Assembly: GCA_964615845.1 (NCBI GenBank)
Contig: CAZTRC010000003.1
Coordinates: forward strand, 1 to 48,003
Origin: an uncultured Candidatus Saccharibacteria bacterium
Lineage (GTDB): Bacteria > Patescibacteriota > Minisyncoccia > Phycocordibacterales > CSBR16-119
DNA: 48,003 nt
Direction of reading: 5' to 3'
Position numbers and translations under genes: made by a program
Shown: positions 1,082 to 45,088 of the stretch, piece after piece
Position numbering within the stretch: the stretch's first letter is position 1
Layout: every line of letters starts with the position of its first letter
The notes under the pieces: generated by a model
The model's input: only the letters and a program-made list of their open reading frames with translations
Database searches by the model: none
What the model was told of the DNA's origin: nothing

Positions 1082-3619
1082 ATGTCTATAGTTTCATCTA
1101 TAAAAGATATGTTCGGGGACGGCAATGCCGGCTTTTTGAAAGAGGCCGAAAAGGTGGTCAAAGCAGTGAACGCCTTGGAGGCGGGTCTAACTGAGCTCTC
1201 GGCCGAAGAATTCCCTAAGCGCACAAATGCTTTAAAAGAACGCTTTTTGGCTGGGGAAACTCTGGACCAGATATTGCCAGAAGCTTTTGCTCTGGTTCGC
1301 GAAGCCTCGAAAAGGACTCGCGGCCAGCGCCACTATGATGTCCAAATAATCGGCGGATACGCGCTTCACAAAGGCAAAATTGCCGAGATGAAAACCGGCG
1401 AAGGTAAGACTCTCGTTGCGACGCTACCTGTGTACCTGAACGCTATCGCGGGCCAAGGCGTCCATGTCGTGACCGTCAACGACTTCCTCGCGCGCCGCGA
1501 CGCCACGTGGATGGGGCAGATCTACGCCTACCTCGGGCTCACTGTCGCCGTCGTGAATTCCCAAAATGTTTCTTATATATATGATAGCGCGGCCGATCCA
1601 GCCAAAGACAAAGAACGCGACGAAGTCGGTTCATTCAAAGTCGTGTATGAATTTCTAAAACCTTGTGGTCGCAAAGAGGCATACGCCGCTGACATCACTT
1701 ACGGCACCAACAACGAATATGGTTTTGATTATTTGCGCGACAACTTGGCTCAAAATACTTCTGGGCTTGTCCAGCGCGGACATTATTTCGCCGTCGTTGA
1801 CGAAGTCGACTCTATCCTCATCGACGAGGCCCGCACTCCGCTTATCATCTCTGCTCCAGCCGAAGAATCTGGCGAGCTTTATGTGCGTTTTGCGGAAATT
1901 TCCAAACAACTGCAACCAGAAACTCACTACGGCATCGACGAAAAGCTTCGTGCCATCACCTTGAACGACGCCGGTATCGAACTCGCCGAGAAACTCCTCG
2001 GAATTGAAAACATTTATACTGAAAAAGGCATCAAATACGTCCACCACCTCGAGACAGCGGTGCGAGCCAGCGCGCTTTTCAAACGCGACAAAGAATATGT
2101 GGTCAACAACGGCGAAGTTATCATCATCGACCAATCAACTGGGCGCATGATGCCAGGCCGAAGATTCAATCAAGGCCTTCACCAAGCGCTCGAAGCCAAA
2201 GAAGGCGTCGAGATCAAGCAGGAAACCAAGACTGTCGCTTCGATCACTTACCAAAACTACTTCAGGTTTTACAAAAAGTTAAGCGGTATGACCGGTACGG
2301 CCAAGACTTCGCAAGAAGAGTTTTACACCGTCTACGGTCTCGACGTCATTAGCATCCCGACCAATGTCCCGGTAGCGCGCCTCGATCATGATGACCTCAT
2401 TTTCCAAACCGAGAAGGGCAAATTCCAAGCGATTGCGCGTAAAATAAAAGAAGTGAACCAAACCGGCCAGCCTATCCTCATCGGTACCATCTCGATCGAA
2501 CGCAACGAACTCTTGTCAGAATACCTCCGCAAAGAAGGCATTTCGCACACGATCTTGAACGCCAAGAAACACGAGTCCGAAGGCGAGATCGTAGCCTCAG
2601 CTGGAAAGCTCGGCGCGGTGACGATCGCGACCAACATGGCAGGTCGTGGTATCGACATCAAGCTCGGCGGGGAAATGGCGACGCCGGAACAGCACGCTCA
2701 AGTGAAATCTCTCGGCGGACTCTTTGTCCTCGGAACTGAGCGCCATGAATCTCGCCGTATCGACAACCAGCTCCGCGGACGCTCCGGCCGCCAAGGCGAT
2801 CCGGGCGCGACACAATTTTTCGTCTCTCTCGATGACGACCTCATGCGTATCTTCGGCGGAGATAGGATGAAAGCCATGATGGGTAGATTTGGCATCAGTG
2901 AAGACGAGCCGATCAAAAACAGCTTCATCAGCCGGGCTATCGAGAGTGCCCAGAAGAAAATCGAAGGCTTCAATTTCGATTCGCGAAAGAACACGCTCGA
3001 ATATGACAACGTCCTAAATACCCAGAGAAATGCTATCTACGCTCGCCGAAAGAAGATGCTCTCGGCTCCGGACGCTGAAATACAGGAGTTCTTGTTTGAA
3101 ATCGCGCCGGATAGGGTGAAAATGGAGGAGCTGATTGCGGCGAAAATCCAAGAAGTCGGCGAAGCGCAATTTTATAACACCGCTCGCCGGATTATTCTCT
3201 ACGTCACCGACATCTTGTGGATTGAGCACCTAGAGACGATGGATCATGTCCGCTCATCCGTGAATCTCCGCGCCTACGGCCAAAGAGAGCCGATTATCGA
3301 ATACAAGAAAGAAGGCTTGAACTTCTTCAACCAAATGGAAGCATCCCTCAAAGAGCAGGTCTTGTCTCTCATCGACACCATCCGCGTCGCCGCCGCGTCA
3401 GCCGAAGCTCCGAAAGAAGCGCCGAAGCAATACATGGAGAGCGGCGGGGGAACTGAGTCCGAAAACGCTGGCCAAACCATCCAAAAATCCGAAGAAGACA
3501 AAATCGGGCGTAACGACATTGTCATTATCCAAAAGGGAACTGAAACTCAAGAAATTAAATACAAAAAAGCGGAGCAATTGCTCGCGGAAGGATGGACGAT
3601 AAAGGAGGTTAAGAAATAA
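1082..3619 (+). CDS. secA: preprotein translocase ATPase SecA
   Basis: 845 aa. Walker A is MKTGEGKT, the DEAD-like box is VDEVDSILIDEARTPLIIS, and the motifs TGMTGTA and RGRSGRQGDPG are unmistakable SecA signatures. Confidence 0.98.
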   Translation: MSIVSSIKDMFGDGNAGFLKEAEKVVKAVNALEAGLTELSAEEFPKRTNALKERFLAGETLDQILPEAFALVREASKRTRGQRHYDVQIIGGYALHKGKIAEMKTGEGKTLVATLPVYLNAIAGQGVHVVTVNDFLARRDATWMGQIYAYLGLTVAVVNSQNVSYIYDSAADPAKDKERDEVGSFKVVYEFLKPCGRKEAYAADITYGTNNEYGFDYLRDNLAQNTSGLVQRGHYFAVVDEVDSILIDEARTPLIISAPAEESGELYVRFAEISKQLQPETHYGIDEKLRAITLNDAGIELAEKLLGIENIYTEKGIKYVHHLETAVRASALFKRDKEYVVNNGEVIIIDQSTGRMMPGRRFNQGLHQALEAKEGVEIKQETKTVASITYQNYFRFYKKLSGMTGTAKTSQEEFYTVYGLDVISIPTNVPVARLDHDDLIFQTEKGKFQAIARKIKEVNQTGQPILIGTISIERNELLSEYLRKEGISHTILNAKKHESEGEIVASAGKLGAVTIATNMAGRGIDIKLGGEMATPEQHAQVKSLGGLFVLGTERHESRRIDNQLRGRSGRQGDPGATQFFVSLDDDLMRIFGGDRMKAMMGRFGISEDEPIKNSFISRAIESAQKKIEGFNFDSRKNTLEYDNVLNTQRNAIYARRKKMLSAPDAEIQEFLFEIAPDRVKMEELIAAKIQEVGEAQFYNTARRIILYVTDILWIEHLETMDHVRSSVNLRAYGQREPIIEYKKEGLNFFNQMEASLKEQVLSLIDTIRVAAASAEAPKEAPKQYMESGGGTESENAGQTIQKSEEDKIGRNDIVIIQKGTETQEIKYKKAEQLLAEGWTIKEVKK

Positions 3620-3628
3620 AACAGGGAC

Positions 3629-3660
3629 ACCCCGGAAGGCCGGGGTATCTTGTTGTTTGT
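3629..3660. terminator. bidirectional intrinsic terminator between secA and the convergent ORF
   Basis: ACCCCGG-AAGG-CCGGGGT stem followed by a T-rich tail (ATCTTGTTGTTTGT). Confidence 0.7.
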
Positions 3661-3667
3661 GCGCATG

Positions 3668-3994
3668 TCAATCTTTCTTGGTTAGCGCTTGTTCGAACCT
3701 CAGGGTTCCATACACCGCTGCTCGATTAGCAATGGTGGAGATTATCCACTGAAGGTCTCGTATCCGCTTAGGGTCCATTTCGGAGAGGATCTCATCCAAT
3801 TCCGCGAATGTTTCCTCTTCCATGACGTCAGCTGGTTCCAACTCCATGATGTCAGTTATCTCACCGACAATACTGAGGTCTTCAGCGACGCTTTCCCTGG
3901 AAGTACCCGCGGGACGTGTAAGGAAACTCACTGTCATCGTTGGATTGGTTCCCAAGCTCTTGAGCATCAGGAGAAAGAACTGTCGTTTCATCAT
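3668..3994 (-). CDS. hypothetical acidic protein (108 aa)
   Basis: This is the most protein-like of three overlapping ORFs. The + strand alternatives are Ser/Leu/Cys-rich shadows. It ends next to the shared terminator. No recognisable motif. Confidence 0.45.
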   Translation of the reverse strand: MMKRQFFLLMLKSLGTNPTMTVSFLTRPAGTSRESVAEDLSIVGEITDIMELEPADVMEEETFAELDEILSEMDPKRIRDLQWIISTIANRAAVYGTLRFEQALTKKD

Positions 3995-11997: not shown

Positions 11998-13245
11998 ATG
12001 AATCAAAACAACCCATTTCAAAATTACTTGGACAACTTGGCGCGAGCGGGCGAGGCTCTGGGGCTCACTCCGGCCGAAATCGAAAAACTATCCGTACCGC
12101 AAAATATTATCCAGTCAGACCTCGTCATCAAAACTTCCAAAGGCGATGAGACATTTCCGGCCTATCGGGTGCAATTCAATAATGCGCGCGGACCATTCAA
12201 GGGCGGTATCAGATTCCATCCAGCGGCCGACCTTGATGAAGTGAAGGCTCTCGCGGCTCTCATGGCGGTTAAATGCGCTGTCGTTGGCATTCCTCTCGGC
12301 GGAGCCAAGGGCGGGGTGACCATAGATCCGAAGCAATATGGTGCTAAAGATTTGGAATTGGTCGCGCGCGCTTGGGCCCGCGCGATGCAGCCGCACATAG
12401 GGGTCGCCAAGGACATCCCAGCTCCGGACGTGTACACCAACAGCCAGACGATGGCGCACATTTTGGATGAGTATGAGCAGATTGTCGGACACGAAGAGTT
12501 TGGTGTCATCACCGGGAAGCCTCTCGAGCTCGGCGGATCACTTGGCAGGAATATCGCGACGGCTCAAGGCGGCATCTACGTCCTCTCTGAACTTTTACAA
12601 AATATGAATTTGCGTCCGGAGGACATGCGTGTCGCAGTCCAGGGTTTCGGTAATGCCGGTTATACTGCAGCGTCAATCCTCCACAACATGGATTACAAAA
12701 TCGTGGCGGTGTCGGACTCGTCCGGCGGCATTTATGCCGAGGGCGGGCTCGACCCCGAAGAACTCAATCGTTTCAAAGAAGAAGGCAAAAGTCTGTCAGA
12801 ATTTTCCAAAGATGGTTTCAAGAATATTACGAACGAAGAACTCCTCGTGTCTCCCTGCGATATCTTGATTCCAGCGGCGCTCGACAATCAGATTACCAAA
12901 GAAAATGCCGGAGATATCAAAGCGAAAATCGTGTTAGAGCTTGCCAACGGCCCGACGACTCCCGAAGCCGACGCAATTCTTTTCGAGAAAGGAATCACCC
13001 TCATTCCAGATGTCTTGGCCAATGCCGGCGGCGTCACGGTTTCGTATTTTGAGTGGGTTCAAAACAGGAGCGGCGACAGATGGAAAGAAACGGACGTTTT
13101 GCAAAAATTAAAAGATATCATGTCCGAGAGCTTCAAAGGCGTTTATGCTCTGGCCAAAGAGAAAAATATCGACTTGCGTCTCGGAGCTTTCTCCCTAGGT
13201 GTCAAAAGGATTGTTGACGCGATGAAATTGAGAGGACGGATATAA
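11998..13245 (+). CDS. gdhA: Glu/Leu/Phe/Val-family dehydrogenase, most likely glutamate dehydrogenase
   Basis: 415 aa. GPFKGGIRFHP is the catalytic Lys motif, GIPLGGAKGG is present, and the Rossmann motif is VQGFGNAG. Confidence 0.9.
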   Translation: MNQNNPFQNYLDNLARAGEALGLTPAEIEKLSVPQNIIQSDLVIKTSKGDETFPAYRVQFNNARGPFKGGIRFHPAADLDEVKALAALMAVKCAVVGIPLGGAKGGVTIDPKQYGAKDLELVARAWARAMQPHIGVAKDIPAPDVYTNSQTMAHILDEYEQIVGHEEFGVITGKPLELGGSLGRNIATAQGGIYVLSELLQNMNLRPEDMRVAVQGFGNAGYTAASILHNMDYKIVAVSDSSGGIYAEGGLDPEELNRFKEEGKSLSEFSKDGFKNITNEELLVSPCDILIPAALDNQITKENAGDIKAKIVLELANGPTTPEADAILFEKGITLIPDVLANAGGVTVSYFEWVQNRSGDRWKETDVLQKLKDIMSESFKGVYALAKEKNIDLRLGAFSLGVKRIVDAMKLRGRI

Positions 13246-13249
13246 TTAA

Positions 13250-13347
13250 GCCGGGGCGCTTTCGTGATTTTTTCGGTCCTCGGGTCGGCCAGAGGGTCGG
13301 GGCGATGGCCTCAACCAGACACGCAAAAATCACGAAAGCGCCCCGGC
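13250..13347. repeat. long perfect hairpin with conserved split core, copy 1
   Basis: 13250-13272 is the exact reverse complement of 13325-13347 (23 bp). The 52-nt interior shares a 15-nt 5' block and a 13-nt 3' block with the reverse complement of the interior of 44928-45024. Confidence 0.9.
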
Positions 13348-13354
13348 CCACCAG

Positions 13355-14464
13355 ATGAAAAACTACATTGTAGAAAAAAAGAAACGGCTTGAAACATTCC
13401 TCCGGGAGAATAGGAATTACGCCATGCCGGCAATACTTCTCGTCGGTTTTTTTCTCGATACTCTGACGCTACGGCAGATCGATCGCGTTTTCGACAATGT
13501 CGTCTTGCTAACGCACATGTTCATTATCGCGACGACGATTGCTCTTCTTTTTTCGGTCGACACTCGTTTCGGTCGGCGGTTTGGTTTGGAAAACAAGAAA
13601 TCGACCATTTCAGCTTTGATGCTCTTTTCTTTCGGCGGCCTCTTCTCGGGTTTTGTCGTTTTCTATTCGCGTTCAGGTTCGCTCATTTCGAGCTGGCCAT
13701 TTATACTCCTCATGCTTCTTCTTATGATCGCGACCGAGATGCGCAAGAAATACTATGAGAAATTAATTTTGCAAATCACCATTTTCTATATCGGTATTTT
13801 CTCTTATCTCATTTTCTCCTTGCCCGTCGTCGTGAAAAAAATGGGTACCACAATTTATCTTTTGAGCGGCGTCGTGAGCCTTCTTTTCATTTATGGCTAT
13901 CTCGCGCTCTTGCAACGCATTGATCGGCAGAAGATGAAAATTCACACCAAGAAACTCTTTGTCCGCATCGTTTCCATCTTCGTTGTGTTTAATCTTTTGT
14001 ATTTTACCAACATTATCCCGCCGATTCCGCTGTCCTTGAATTTCATCTCCGTGTATCATGATTTTTTTCGTATCCAAGCTGTCGAATATCGCGGGCAATA
14101 CGAAGTGCCGCCAGTGTGGCAATTTTGGCGCAAAAGGAGCCGGGTCTTTCACCGCGAAGCTGGCGAGACGATTTATGTCTTTAGCGAGGTTTACGCGCCG
14201 ATCAATCTCAATACCGACATCTATCACAAATGGGAATATTTCGATTCCAAGAAAACGCGCTGGATCGAGACCGACGAAGTCCGGATTCCGATTACCGGCG
14301 GACGCGCCGACGGTTTCCGAGGATTCTCGAAGAAGACCAATGTCTTCCCGGGCTCTTGGCGGGTGAAAATCACGACGGGAAGAGGGCAGATGATTGGCCG
14401 GATTACTTTTAAGATAAAGAATGCTGAGGAGCCAATTATCACCAAGGAAGAAGTTTTCCGTTGA
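13355..14464 (+). CDS. polytopic membrane protein with a soluble beta-rich C-terminal domain (possibly DUF2914-like)
   Basis: 369 aa with about 7 hydrophobic helices. The C-terminal domain ends GSWRVKITTGRGQMIGRITFKIK. The family assignment is from memory only. Confidence 0.6.
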   Translation: MKNYIVEKKKRLETFLRENRNYAMPAILLVGFFLDTLTLRQIDRVFDNVVLLTHMFIIATTIALLFSVDTRFGRRFGLENKKSTISALMLFSFGGLFSGFVVFYSRSGSLISSWPFILLMLLLMIATEMRKKYYEKLILQITIFYIGIFSYLIFSLPVVVKKMGTTIYLLSGVVSLLFIYGYLALLQRIDRQKMKIHTKKLFVRIVSIFVVFNLLYFTNIIPPIPLSLNFISVYHDFFRIQAVEYRGQYEVPPVWQFWRKRSRVFHREAGETIYVFSEVYAPINLNTDIYHKWEYFDSKKTRWIETDEVRIPITGGRADGFRGFSKKTNVFPGSWRVKITTGRGQMIGRITFKIKNAEEPIITKEEVFR

Positions 14465-40701: not shown

Positions 40702-40798
40702 GGTCAGGAGTGTTTCGTTGATGTTGAATGTGTCTACCTCATACTATAGCATAATATCTTACTATTTGTCAAGGCCCTAAACCCCCGAAAATTTCTTT

Positions 40799-40866
40799 GC
40801 CCCCACACCTATTTTTTGATCGCGCCAAGGGTGCATTGAAAATAATCAAAAAATAGGTGTGGGGGC
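40799..40866. repeat. long perfect hairpin (22-bp arms, 24-nt loop)
   Basis: GCCCCCACACCTATTTTTTGAT (40799-40820) is the exact reverse complement of ATCAAAAAATAGGTGTGGGGGC (40845-40866). The loop is CGCGCCAAGGGTGCATTGAAAATA. Confidence 0.9.
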
Positions 40867-40902
40867 TTTGAAAAAAGCCGCTTTTTTGCTAAAATACGGC
40901 CC

Positions 40903-44921: not shown

Positions 44922-44927
44922 CATAAA

Positions 44928-45024
44928 CAAATCTGGAGTCGTATTTTCTGAGTGTCTGGTTGAGCCGCAAAAGACGCAGTCTGGCGGCGACCCGAGGACC
45001 GAAGAAAATACGACTCCAGATTTG
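44928..45024. repeat. long perfect hairpin with conserved split core, copy 2 (core inverted relative to copy 1)
   Basis: CAAATCTGGAGTCGTATTTTCT (44928-44949) is the exact reverse complement of 45003-45024. The reverse complement of the 53-nt interior is TCGGTCCTCGGGTCG-CCGC-CAGACTGCGTCTTTT-GCGG-CTCAACCAGACACTC. Confidence 0.9.
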
Positions 45025-45088
45025 CTAACAGTTTTAAGTTCACAATCCACTTAGTCTTTCGGCCTTTTTGACATACAATATATAAGGT

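Follow-up and report, generated by a model that had tools for sequence, protein, structure and literature searches.

The window analysed here, a stretch of 48,003 nucleotides from a contig assigned to an uncultured Candidatus Saccharibacteria bacterium (CAZTRC010000003.1), contains two long hairpins with unrelated outer stems and a common split centre. The question raised by this pair is what kind of element would keep its interior and change its arms: a structured RNA or ribozyme, as preferred in an earlier note made from the letters of the window, or a DNA hairpin recognised through its loop, which the same note also considered. The parts of the two copies are given below, with copy 2 read on the minus strand.

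13250-13272, plus strand: 5' arm of the outer stem (P1) of copy 1, GCCGGGGCGCTTTCGTGATTTTT, complementary to 13325-13347 at 23 of 23 positions
13273-13274, plus strand: 5' junction of copy 1, TC, specific for the subtype
13275-13286, plus strand: 5' core block of copy 1, GGTCCTCGGGTC, exact in both window copies and forming invariant columns of alignment A1
13287-13310, plus strand: inner hairpin (P2) of copy 1, GGCC-16 nt-GGCC; the P2 pairs of the family covary
13310-13320, plus strand: 3' core block of copy 1, CTCAACCAGAC, the first C of which closes P2
13321-13324, plus strand: 3' junction of copy 1, ACGC; this is the ACNC junction of subtype A, the same in copy 2, L122 and L132
13325-13347, plus strand: 3' arm of P1 of copy 1, paired with 13250-13272
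45003-45024, minus strand: 5' arm of P1 of copy 2, complementary to 44928-44949 at 22 of 22 positions
44989-45000, minus strand: 5' core block of copy 2, an exact match to GGTCCTCGGGTC
44964-44988, minus strand: P2 of copy 2, GCCGC-15 nt-GCGGC, paired and unlike the P2 of copy 1 in sequence
44954-44964, minus strand: 3' core block of copy 2, an exact match to CTCAACCAGAC
44928-44949, minus strand: 3' arm of P1 of copy 2, paired with 45003-45024

Both hairpins and their common split core are present where they were first noticed, and far beyond chance: the split-core pattern occurs exactly twice in the window and in none of 100 shuffles, and the folds of copies 1 and 2 have z-scores of -8 to -10 in respect to shuffled sequences. 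Scored with covariance model R1, the element of copy 1 (13245-13350) reaches 77.1 bits (E = 2.5e-18) and that of copy 2 (44924-45030) 82.4 bits (E = 9e-20). The identity between the two copies extends over longer blocks, TCGGTCCTCGGGTCG and CTCAACCAGACAC. No third copy was found in the window, either by fuzzy block searches allowing 2-3 mismatches or by a filter-free covariance-model search. A hairpin at 40793-40870 was rejected as a third copy, its resemblance being confined to the stem. This region (40792-40873) forms another long hairpin, with 29-nt arms that are 90% complementary and an unrelated interior of 24 nt. The ORFs on either side of it are convergent, A/T runs adjoin its loop as in the core element, and it could be either a terminator or some other kind of hairpin element.

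Copy 1 is located 4 nt 3' of the gdh stop codon (13243-13245) and 7 nt 5' of an ATG at 13355, in sense orientation between two co-oriented genes. The core of copy 2 is on the minus strand, antisense to both neighbouring genes. A TACAATA (-10-like) box at 45073-45079 precedes the gene of a solute-binding protein (SBP) and is kept in relatives L127-L129; because of this conserved box, copy 2 is placed behind one transcription unit and ahead of the promoter of the next. An unusual or bidirectional terminator hairpin would fit this placement of copy 2, as well as the position of both window copies directly 3' of a stop codon. The T-run, however, lies within the stem, no U-tract follows on either strand, and a terminator scan calls neither copy, in agreement with the initial judgement that these are not intrinsic terminators. 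Moreover, copy 1 ends immediately before a co-oriented gene, half of the family lies in ORFs that continue on both sides, and termination leaves the conserved asymmetric core unexplained, so that the terminator reading is scarcely credible.

The family was defined by a scan for GGTCCTCGGGTC-N8-38-CTCAACCAGAC in one genome per bacterial or archaeal species. The exact core was found in at least 119 stretches, as at least 131 copies from at least 69 assemblies of Patescibacteria (CPR), and the further copies in relatives that the earlier note asked for are numerous. Nearly all of the matches listed are labelled Patescibacteria, mostly Paceibacteria/Parcubacteria, together with Nomura-, Campbell-, Adler- and Zambryskibacteria and Minisyncoccia. 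LBYO01, MFAC01, JBBTTR01 and CAZQSY01 hold 9-13 or more exact-core copies each. The length of the element is ~95-120 nt. The core statistics given below refer to copies selected by their exact core, except for those at the gdh locus. The output of a fuzzy regular expression for divergent cores was mostly noise; divergent copies were found with covariance model R1 and used for reading the fold of the core. No match for the core is present among 2.9 M viral contigs, and a phage origin was rejected on this ground. The core sequence occurs in no paper found in the literature, nor was a paper found that links MITEs or palindromic elements with CPR, Patescibacteria or Parcubacteria; a mobile hairpin element of Patescibacteria is apparently undescribed so far. 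Regarding the taxonomic labels, a 'Burkholderiales' MAG bears the element in an AT-rich context (L024 and L056 (JAMPXW01) are among the doubtful labels), and many 'uncultured Candidatus Saccharibacteria' TPA labels (CAY*/CAZ* assemblies) are attached to Paceibacteria-like genomes. Both labels are probably unreliable. By the source names of its homologues, the organism of the window is likewise related to Paceibacteria.

In alignment A1, which comprises 82 non-redundant copies and by construction shows no variation in the core blocks of 12 and 11 nt, 72% of the cells of 24 P1 and 4 P2 pairs are paired, compared with 44% after shuffling, and none of 500 shuffles reaches 72%. Both sides vary in each of the 24 P1 pairs, and a slide control is maximal at register 0. 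P2 is paired in 92% of the cells and its pairs covary, while its length varies between copies from 8 to 38 nt. The 5' junction is TC, TCG, TCA or none, depending on the subfamily. Among the matches listed, the arms are 28% identical between copies, yet the P1 of ~23 bp has 0-4 defects. The perfect stems emphasised at first are thus a property of both window copies and not of the family: 7 of the 85 non-MITE copies among the matches listed have a defect-free P1, 1-4 defects in ~23 bp are typical, and the stems of the matches listed show ~10% defects overall. A conserved unpaired or bulged core enclosed by compensated helices, the other feature pointed out from the window, is borne out by more than 100 copies and also by orthologous loci.

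The divergent copies suggest that the core is a nearly continuous bulged helix. Read in this way, the central helix would consist of GGUC/GACC, a CUC(G) bulge opposite A, GG(U)/(A)CC and a small internal loop (C versus UCA), followed by P2. A variant core class has the form GGUC-CUC-GG-WUCU-[P2]-CC-A-GACC, and in one copy a U-to-C change is accompanied by the matching A-to-G change, consistent with the GGU/ACC pairing. The 5' core block includes GGTC and GGGTC repeats. The defects of P1, counted on the core strand among the matches listed, comprise 36 G.U pairs, 76 A.C pairs and 125 other mismatches; the preponderance of A.C over G.U (76 versus 36) may be inflated by the shared ancestry of the subfamilies. 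Its direction is the same in sense and antisense copies within ORFs.

Relatives at the two window loci were retrieved by homology of the neighbouring proteins and not by the core. L121, L122/123 and L132 have the element at the gdh|DUF2914 locus; it is absent from this locus in L124, L125/126, L131 and L133, where the spacers are 2-37 nt long and contain no hairpin and nothing that resembles an arm. The copy in L121 shows two stem mismatches and comes from a contig of 1.9x coverage. At the methyltransferase|SBP locus, copy 2 is absent in three of three relatives (L127, L128 and L129, 70-73% identity). Because the empty sites lack both arms, the inserting unit is the whole hairpin, and the arms arrive with the element. 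These empty orthologous sites led to the rejection of arms copied from the target and of a hairpin that was there before the insertion, and they refute the suggestion that the element generates palindromes or lands in existing ones. Copy 1 goes back to an old insertion, common to relatives in which the neighbouring protein is 69-73% identical, and copy 2 is a lineage-specific one. A separate observation concerns L129, where the site of copy 2 (L129:1242-1290) is occupied by the perfect palindrome GCCGCTGTTTTGGCGGC-CC-GCCGCCAAAACAGCGGC, which has a 2-nt loop and lacks the core.

Direct traces of insertion are found in one subfamily, named AATTACG after its arms (...GAATTACGAAAYGCAAAAATTTA). Direct repeats of 6-8 nt flank 24 of its 43 copies among the matches listed, against a mean of 2.2 for permuted flanks; the repeats are AT-rich and lie exactly 5 nt outside AATTACG on both sides. 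They are read as the 7-8 bp target-site duplications of young copies, and as such indicate insertion as DNA at a staggered cut. With inverted-repeat ends and such duplications in at least one subfamily, the element was wrongly set apart from TIR transposons at first sight. Outside the AATTACG subfamily, target-site duplications were called for 3 of 84 copies among the matches listed (1.4 under the null), and none was detected at copy 1 or copy 2. In ~0.93 Mb of flanking loci there is no transposase or autonomous partner, no lone TIR pair enclosing an ORF and no recurrent neighbour family besides hosts and syntenic genes; the Pfam assignments of the recurrent neighbours are T2SSE, FtsK, MgsA, ThrRS, UvrB, AddA-like, MreB, ABC and TPR proteins. 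Contigs of MITE-rich genomes end within copies of the element (locus ends of L004, L059, L098 and L108), and the repeat therefore fragments MAG assemblies.

After insertion, the parts of the element change at different rates. In L122/123 and L132, at the gdh locus, both core blocks and the junction are unchanged in respect to copy 1. The proximal arms of these orthologues are 0.83-0.93 identical and the distal arms 0.25-0.31, which is the random level. The proximal part of P1 of copy 1, GTGATTTTT, is kept in L122 and L132; the P2 sequence of both differs from that of copy 1, and arms and P2 are still paired. Thus, ~10 bp of proximal P1 and the core remain identical, while distal P1 and P2 drift. 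A similar comparison in PolA (five of the seven element-bearing orthologues, 72% amino-acid identity) gives a third-codon-position identity, measured at identical residues, of 0.95 for the core versus 0.59 for the flanking gene, and the peptides encoded by the arms are just 42-58% identical. In RecG an antisense copy is common to three genomes whose RecG proteins are 72-79% identical. Because the core is kept in the gdh, PolA and antisense RecG copies, the centre of vertically inherited copies is subject to purifying selection on its nucleotides, whichever way the copy is oriented.

Long ORFs of housekeeping genes contain about half of the copies (among the matches listed, 51 in sense and 12 in antisense orientation), and all 63 of these listed copies are open and in frame. 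The length of the core in such copies equals 1 modulo 3. In sense orientation all three frames are seen, with frame 1 (...VLGS[PA]...QPD...) predominating, whereas the antisense copies are all in one frame (...GLVE...TRGP...). The host proteins belong to ~21 families among the matches listed and include, by Pfam, IleRS, LeuRS, PheT, PolA, LigA, RecG, RecJ, UvrA, UvrB, UvrC, UvrD and ParB, as well as Tgt, Dus, the CCA-adding enzyme, IF-2, an M50 protease and an FAD oxidase. The Pfam domains of the hosts resume on either side of the insert, and the inserts are placed at domain linkers or loops. Independent insertions have occurred at one and the same site, with different subtypes in Dus, different frames in IleRS and both orientations in UvrD. 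Judged from the continuity of the ORFs, the copies inside genes are probably translated as inserts of 30-45 residues in large housekeeping proteins, because such copies persist only if in frame and free of stops. A conserved peptide was rejected as the cause of the conservation, as the same nucleotides are used in three sense frames, in one antisense frame and between genes. A profile of the peptides of the in-frame copies, run against a database of 5.8 billion proteins, returned nothing at E <= 10.

These data bear on the possibility that the element is a cis-acting structured RNA (binding a protein, serving RNase processing or stabilisation, or pausing translation) which spread by hitch-hiking on a MITE. 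A conserved internal loop with covarying helices is the architecture of a classic structured RNA, conservation at orthologous loci and the sense position of copy 1 between co-oriented genes fit such a role, and sense orientation prevails among the matches listed (78 versus 25 overall, with a mild bias of 27 versus 13 among the intergenic copies). Within ORFs, however, the ratio of sense to antisense copies is about that predicted from the stop-free frames available. The antisense RecG copy is conserved in three genomes, the UvrD site is occupied in both orientations, and copy 2 is antisense to both its neighbours. On the core strand, moreover, no class of stem defect is as rare as G.U, and the asymmetry is independent of the direction of transcription. 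A duplex of 22-30 bp in an essential mRNA is expected to be a substrate of RNase III and harmful. No Rfam family matches: cmscan of the window gave only a tRNA at the gathering threshold, and just generic long-hairpin (miRNA) noise for 200-nt segments at E <= 10. Taken together, a cis-acting RNA is a doubtful reading, albeit one of some weight.

A more specific variant, a small self-cleaving ribozyme with the conserved internal loop between the two helices as its catalytic core, draws on the resemblance of the stem-internal loop-stem order to minimal twister-sister-like ribozymes (PMC11620745). No ribozyme model (hammerhead, twister, twister-sister, pistol, hatchet, hairpin or HDV-like) matches even at E <= 10, and the initial statement that no known ribozyme core could be fitted holds; inspection by eye likewise gave no hammerhead, hairpin-ribozyme or k-turn motif, and known ribozyme motifs were rejected. 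Cleavage of the sense copies in essential ORFs would destroy the mRNA, antisense copies are conserved, and the core is most plausibly a nearly continuous bulged helix, which makes self-cleavage very improbable. The earlier preference for a structured RNA or ribozyme is thus probably wrong, given that half of the copies would be translated in essential genes, that the antisense RecG copy is conserved and that G.U is rarer than A.C among the defects.

Selection on the centre could also reflect a DNA signal of benefit to the host. Such a signal might serve DNA uptake or recombination, allow priming on single-stranded DNA, or be bound by a protein that organises the chromosome. The purifying selection on the core at vertically inherited loci, in either orientation, and the GGTC/GGGTC repeats of the 5' block would agree with this. 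Nine of the ~21 host families function in DNA repair or replication (PolA, LigA, RecG, RecJ, UvrA, UvrB, UvrC, UvrD and ParB), and the uptake sequences of Neisseria and Haemophilus are similarly biased towards genome-maintenance genes; the excess of repair genes is a raw count, uncorrected for gene length, domain architecture or the tolerance of multidomain proteins for inserts. The density of copies is low for such a signal (2 in 48 kb), and many relatives have no element at the same loci, so that no single copy is indispensable. An orientation tied to replication was rejected, as the two window copies are oriented oppositely with no GC-skew switch between them (n = 2, weak). A host signal of this kind is unlikely.

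The Patescibacteria hairpin was compared with several known systems. According to the review PMC10969869, the Rickettsia palindromic elements (RPE; Ogata et al. 2000) are ~100-150 bp palindromes of reduced-genome Rickettsia that occur between genes and in frame in unrelated housekeeping ORFs, are translated, have no transposase of their own, and are moved by no mechanism known so far. A passage of PMC6649704 adds that RPE are recognisable over their full length and lose repeat identity over time. The Patescibacteria hairpin is likewise palindromic, inserted in frame in many housekeeping ORFs and without its own transposase. It differs from RPE in the host phylum, and in that just the split core and the proximal stem are conserved, with arms that are randomised yet paired. 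By this comparison of descriptions, and with all matches listed in Patescibacteria, it is regarded as an analogue of RPE and not as a member.

Bacterial MITEs (Correia/CREE, ERIC, RUP, BOX) are small, non-coding, multi-copy inverted-repeat hairpins with conserved termini, bound by the transposase, and an interior free to vary (PMC10969869). The length of 95-120 nt, the multiple copies, the inverted-repeat arms of ~23 bp, the 7-8 bp duplications of the AATTACG subfamily, the presence or absence at a locus and the assembly breaks are all shared with MITEs. In contrast, the termini of the present element differ by subfamily, the centre is invariant across the phylum, and no parent IS was found in the flanking loci. 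Mitochondrial genes of Nematomorpha contain long inverted repeats that are translated and are gained or lost between species, with arm complementarity kept as the sequence changes, for which template switching or repeat conversion has been proposed (PMC6649704). The Patescibacteria hairpin, by its reading frames, is probably translated as well, and its arms stay complementary despite sequence change. The Nematomorpha palindromes, however, are conserved coding sequence of the genes themselves, nearly all perfect and with no common core, whereas the present element is a foreign insert with a conserved centre and typically 1-4 stem defects.

Integron attC sites, the attP of CTX phage, the ends of IS200/IS605 and REP/RAYT elements are folded single-stranded DNA recognised by structure. 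Such sites have short conserved paired boxes with extrahelical bases between them and a variable terminal cap, and the Patescibacteria hairpin, with its conserved boxes, bulged bases, variable cap and little other conservation, resembles them. The R boxes of attC (RYYYAAC/GTTRRRY) are at the base of the hairpin, and the integrase acts with no target-site duplication; in the present element, the conserved boxes are above a variable stem of ~23 bp and the hairpin base is variable. By inspection, (G)CTCAAC occurs once in the 3' core block, with no complementary GTTGAG on the same strand. An integron attC site was rejected for want of complementary R boxes at the hairpin base, which upholds the initial view that attC R/L boxes are missing. 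IS200/IS605 and REP elements conserve their stem sequences. REP/REPIN was rejected, as the arms are 28% identical and the flanking loci gave no recurrent neighbouring gene family.

Our main reading, to which we assign a probability of roughly 55%, is that the hairpins belong to an old family of non-autonomous mobile DNA elements that is widespread in Patescibacteria and in which the conserved centre acts as a recognition module in folded DNA. The element is one long hairpin made of the ~23-bp P1, the conserved bulged central helix, the variable terminal P2 and subtype-specific junctions. The whole hairpin inserts as DNA in the manner of a MITE and lands in intergenic spacers as well as in genes, where the survivors are those in frame and free of stops; mobilisation would take place in trans. 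The centre would bind a protein acting in trans. This protein, which might be the enzyme that mobilises the element or a factor of the host, would read the element in its folded form, because the variable P2 (8-38 nt) brings both blocks together only when extruded. The folded form would more likely be DNA, as a single-stranded hairpin or a cruciform, than mRNA, and we favour recognition of a DNA hairpin or cruciform over that of RNA with moderate confidence. Among the readings put forward in the earlier note, the best fit is recognition of a DNA hairpin by way of its loop. The complementarity of the stem may be kept by selection on the fold, possibly aided by hairpin-templated repair; active conversion of one arm by the other is unsupported because of the ~10% stem defects, and selection for fold stability suffices.

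Several points do not sit easily with a mobile DNA element: no mobilising gene was found adjoining the copies, target-site duplications were detected in one subfamily only, and the sense bias between genes (27 versus 13) would suit a role as RNA. Furthermore, purifying selection on the centre is not predicted for a purely selfish MITE, and therefore a function or constraint is missing from this model. A bolder form of the mobile-element reading, which we advance tentatively as possible, is an 'inside-out' element. Here a structure-specific protein of Patescibacteria, be it an enzyme or a factor of the host, would recognise the invariant bulged central helix, and not the ends, in folded single-stranded or cruciform DNA. 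This module would be kept in the long term by purifying selection, even in essential genes and in either orientation; such upkeep would imply either an addictive mechanism by which the element preserves itself or a function for the host, for example in DNA uptake, recombination or the restart of replication.

Much of bacterial diversity belongs to Patescibacteria, whose genomes are minimal and on which hardly any experiments have been made. A hairpin found throughout the phylum that adds 30-45 residues to DNA-repair, replication and tRNA enzymes would matter for protein evolution. The element also affects gene calling, protein-family alignments and, because contigs break at its repeats, the assembly of MAGs. 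The reversed pattern of conservation, with an invariant centre that is held by purifying selection once inserted and arms that are free to change but paired, points to a putative structure-specific recognition protein, for which the 23-nt core can serve as a probe. If the tentative reading with a recognised centre is true, the hairpin would represent a DNA element of a new kind, and the proteins that recognise such hairpins, as a new class, could be searched for directly.

Other insertions were observed in the same host genes. PheT carries in-frame GC-rich palindromes with unrelated interiors in L103 (minus strand, ~3603-3722 of the reverse complement) and L071:5043-5159, and one of them occupies the exact site of the core element in other genomes. 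Apparently, coding palindromes of several families occur in CPR genomes. The CPR IleRS contains an inserted histidine-phosphatase domain (entry L016:2124-5711, L114:2024-5449), and the CPR LeuRS of the same L016/L114 entry contains inserted DUF559 and NUDIX domains.
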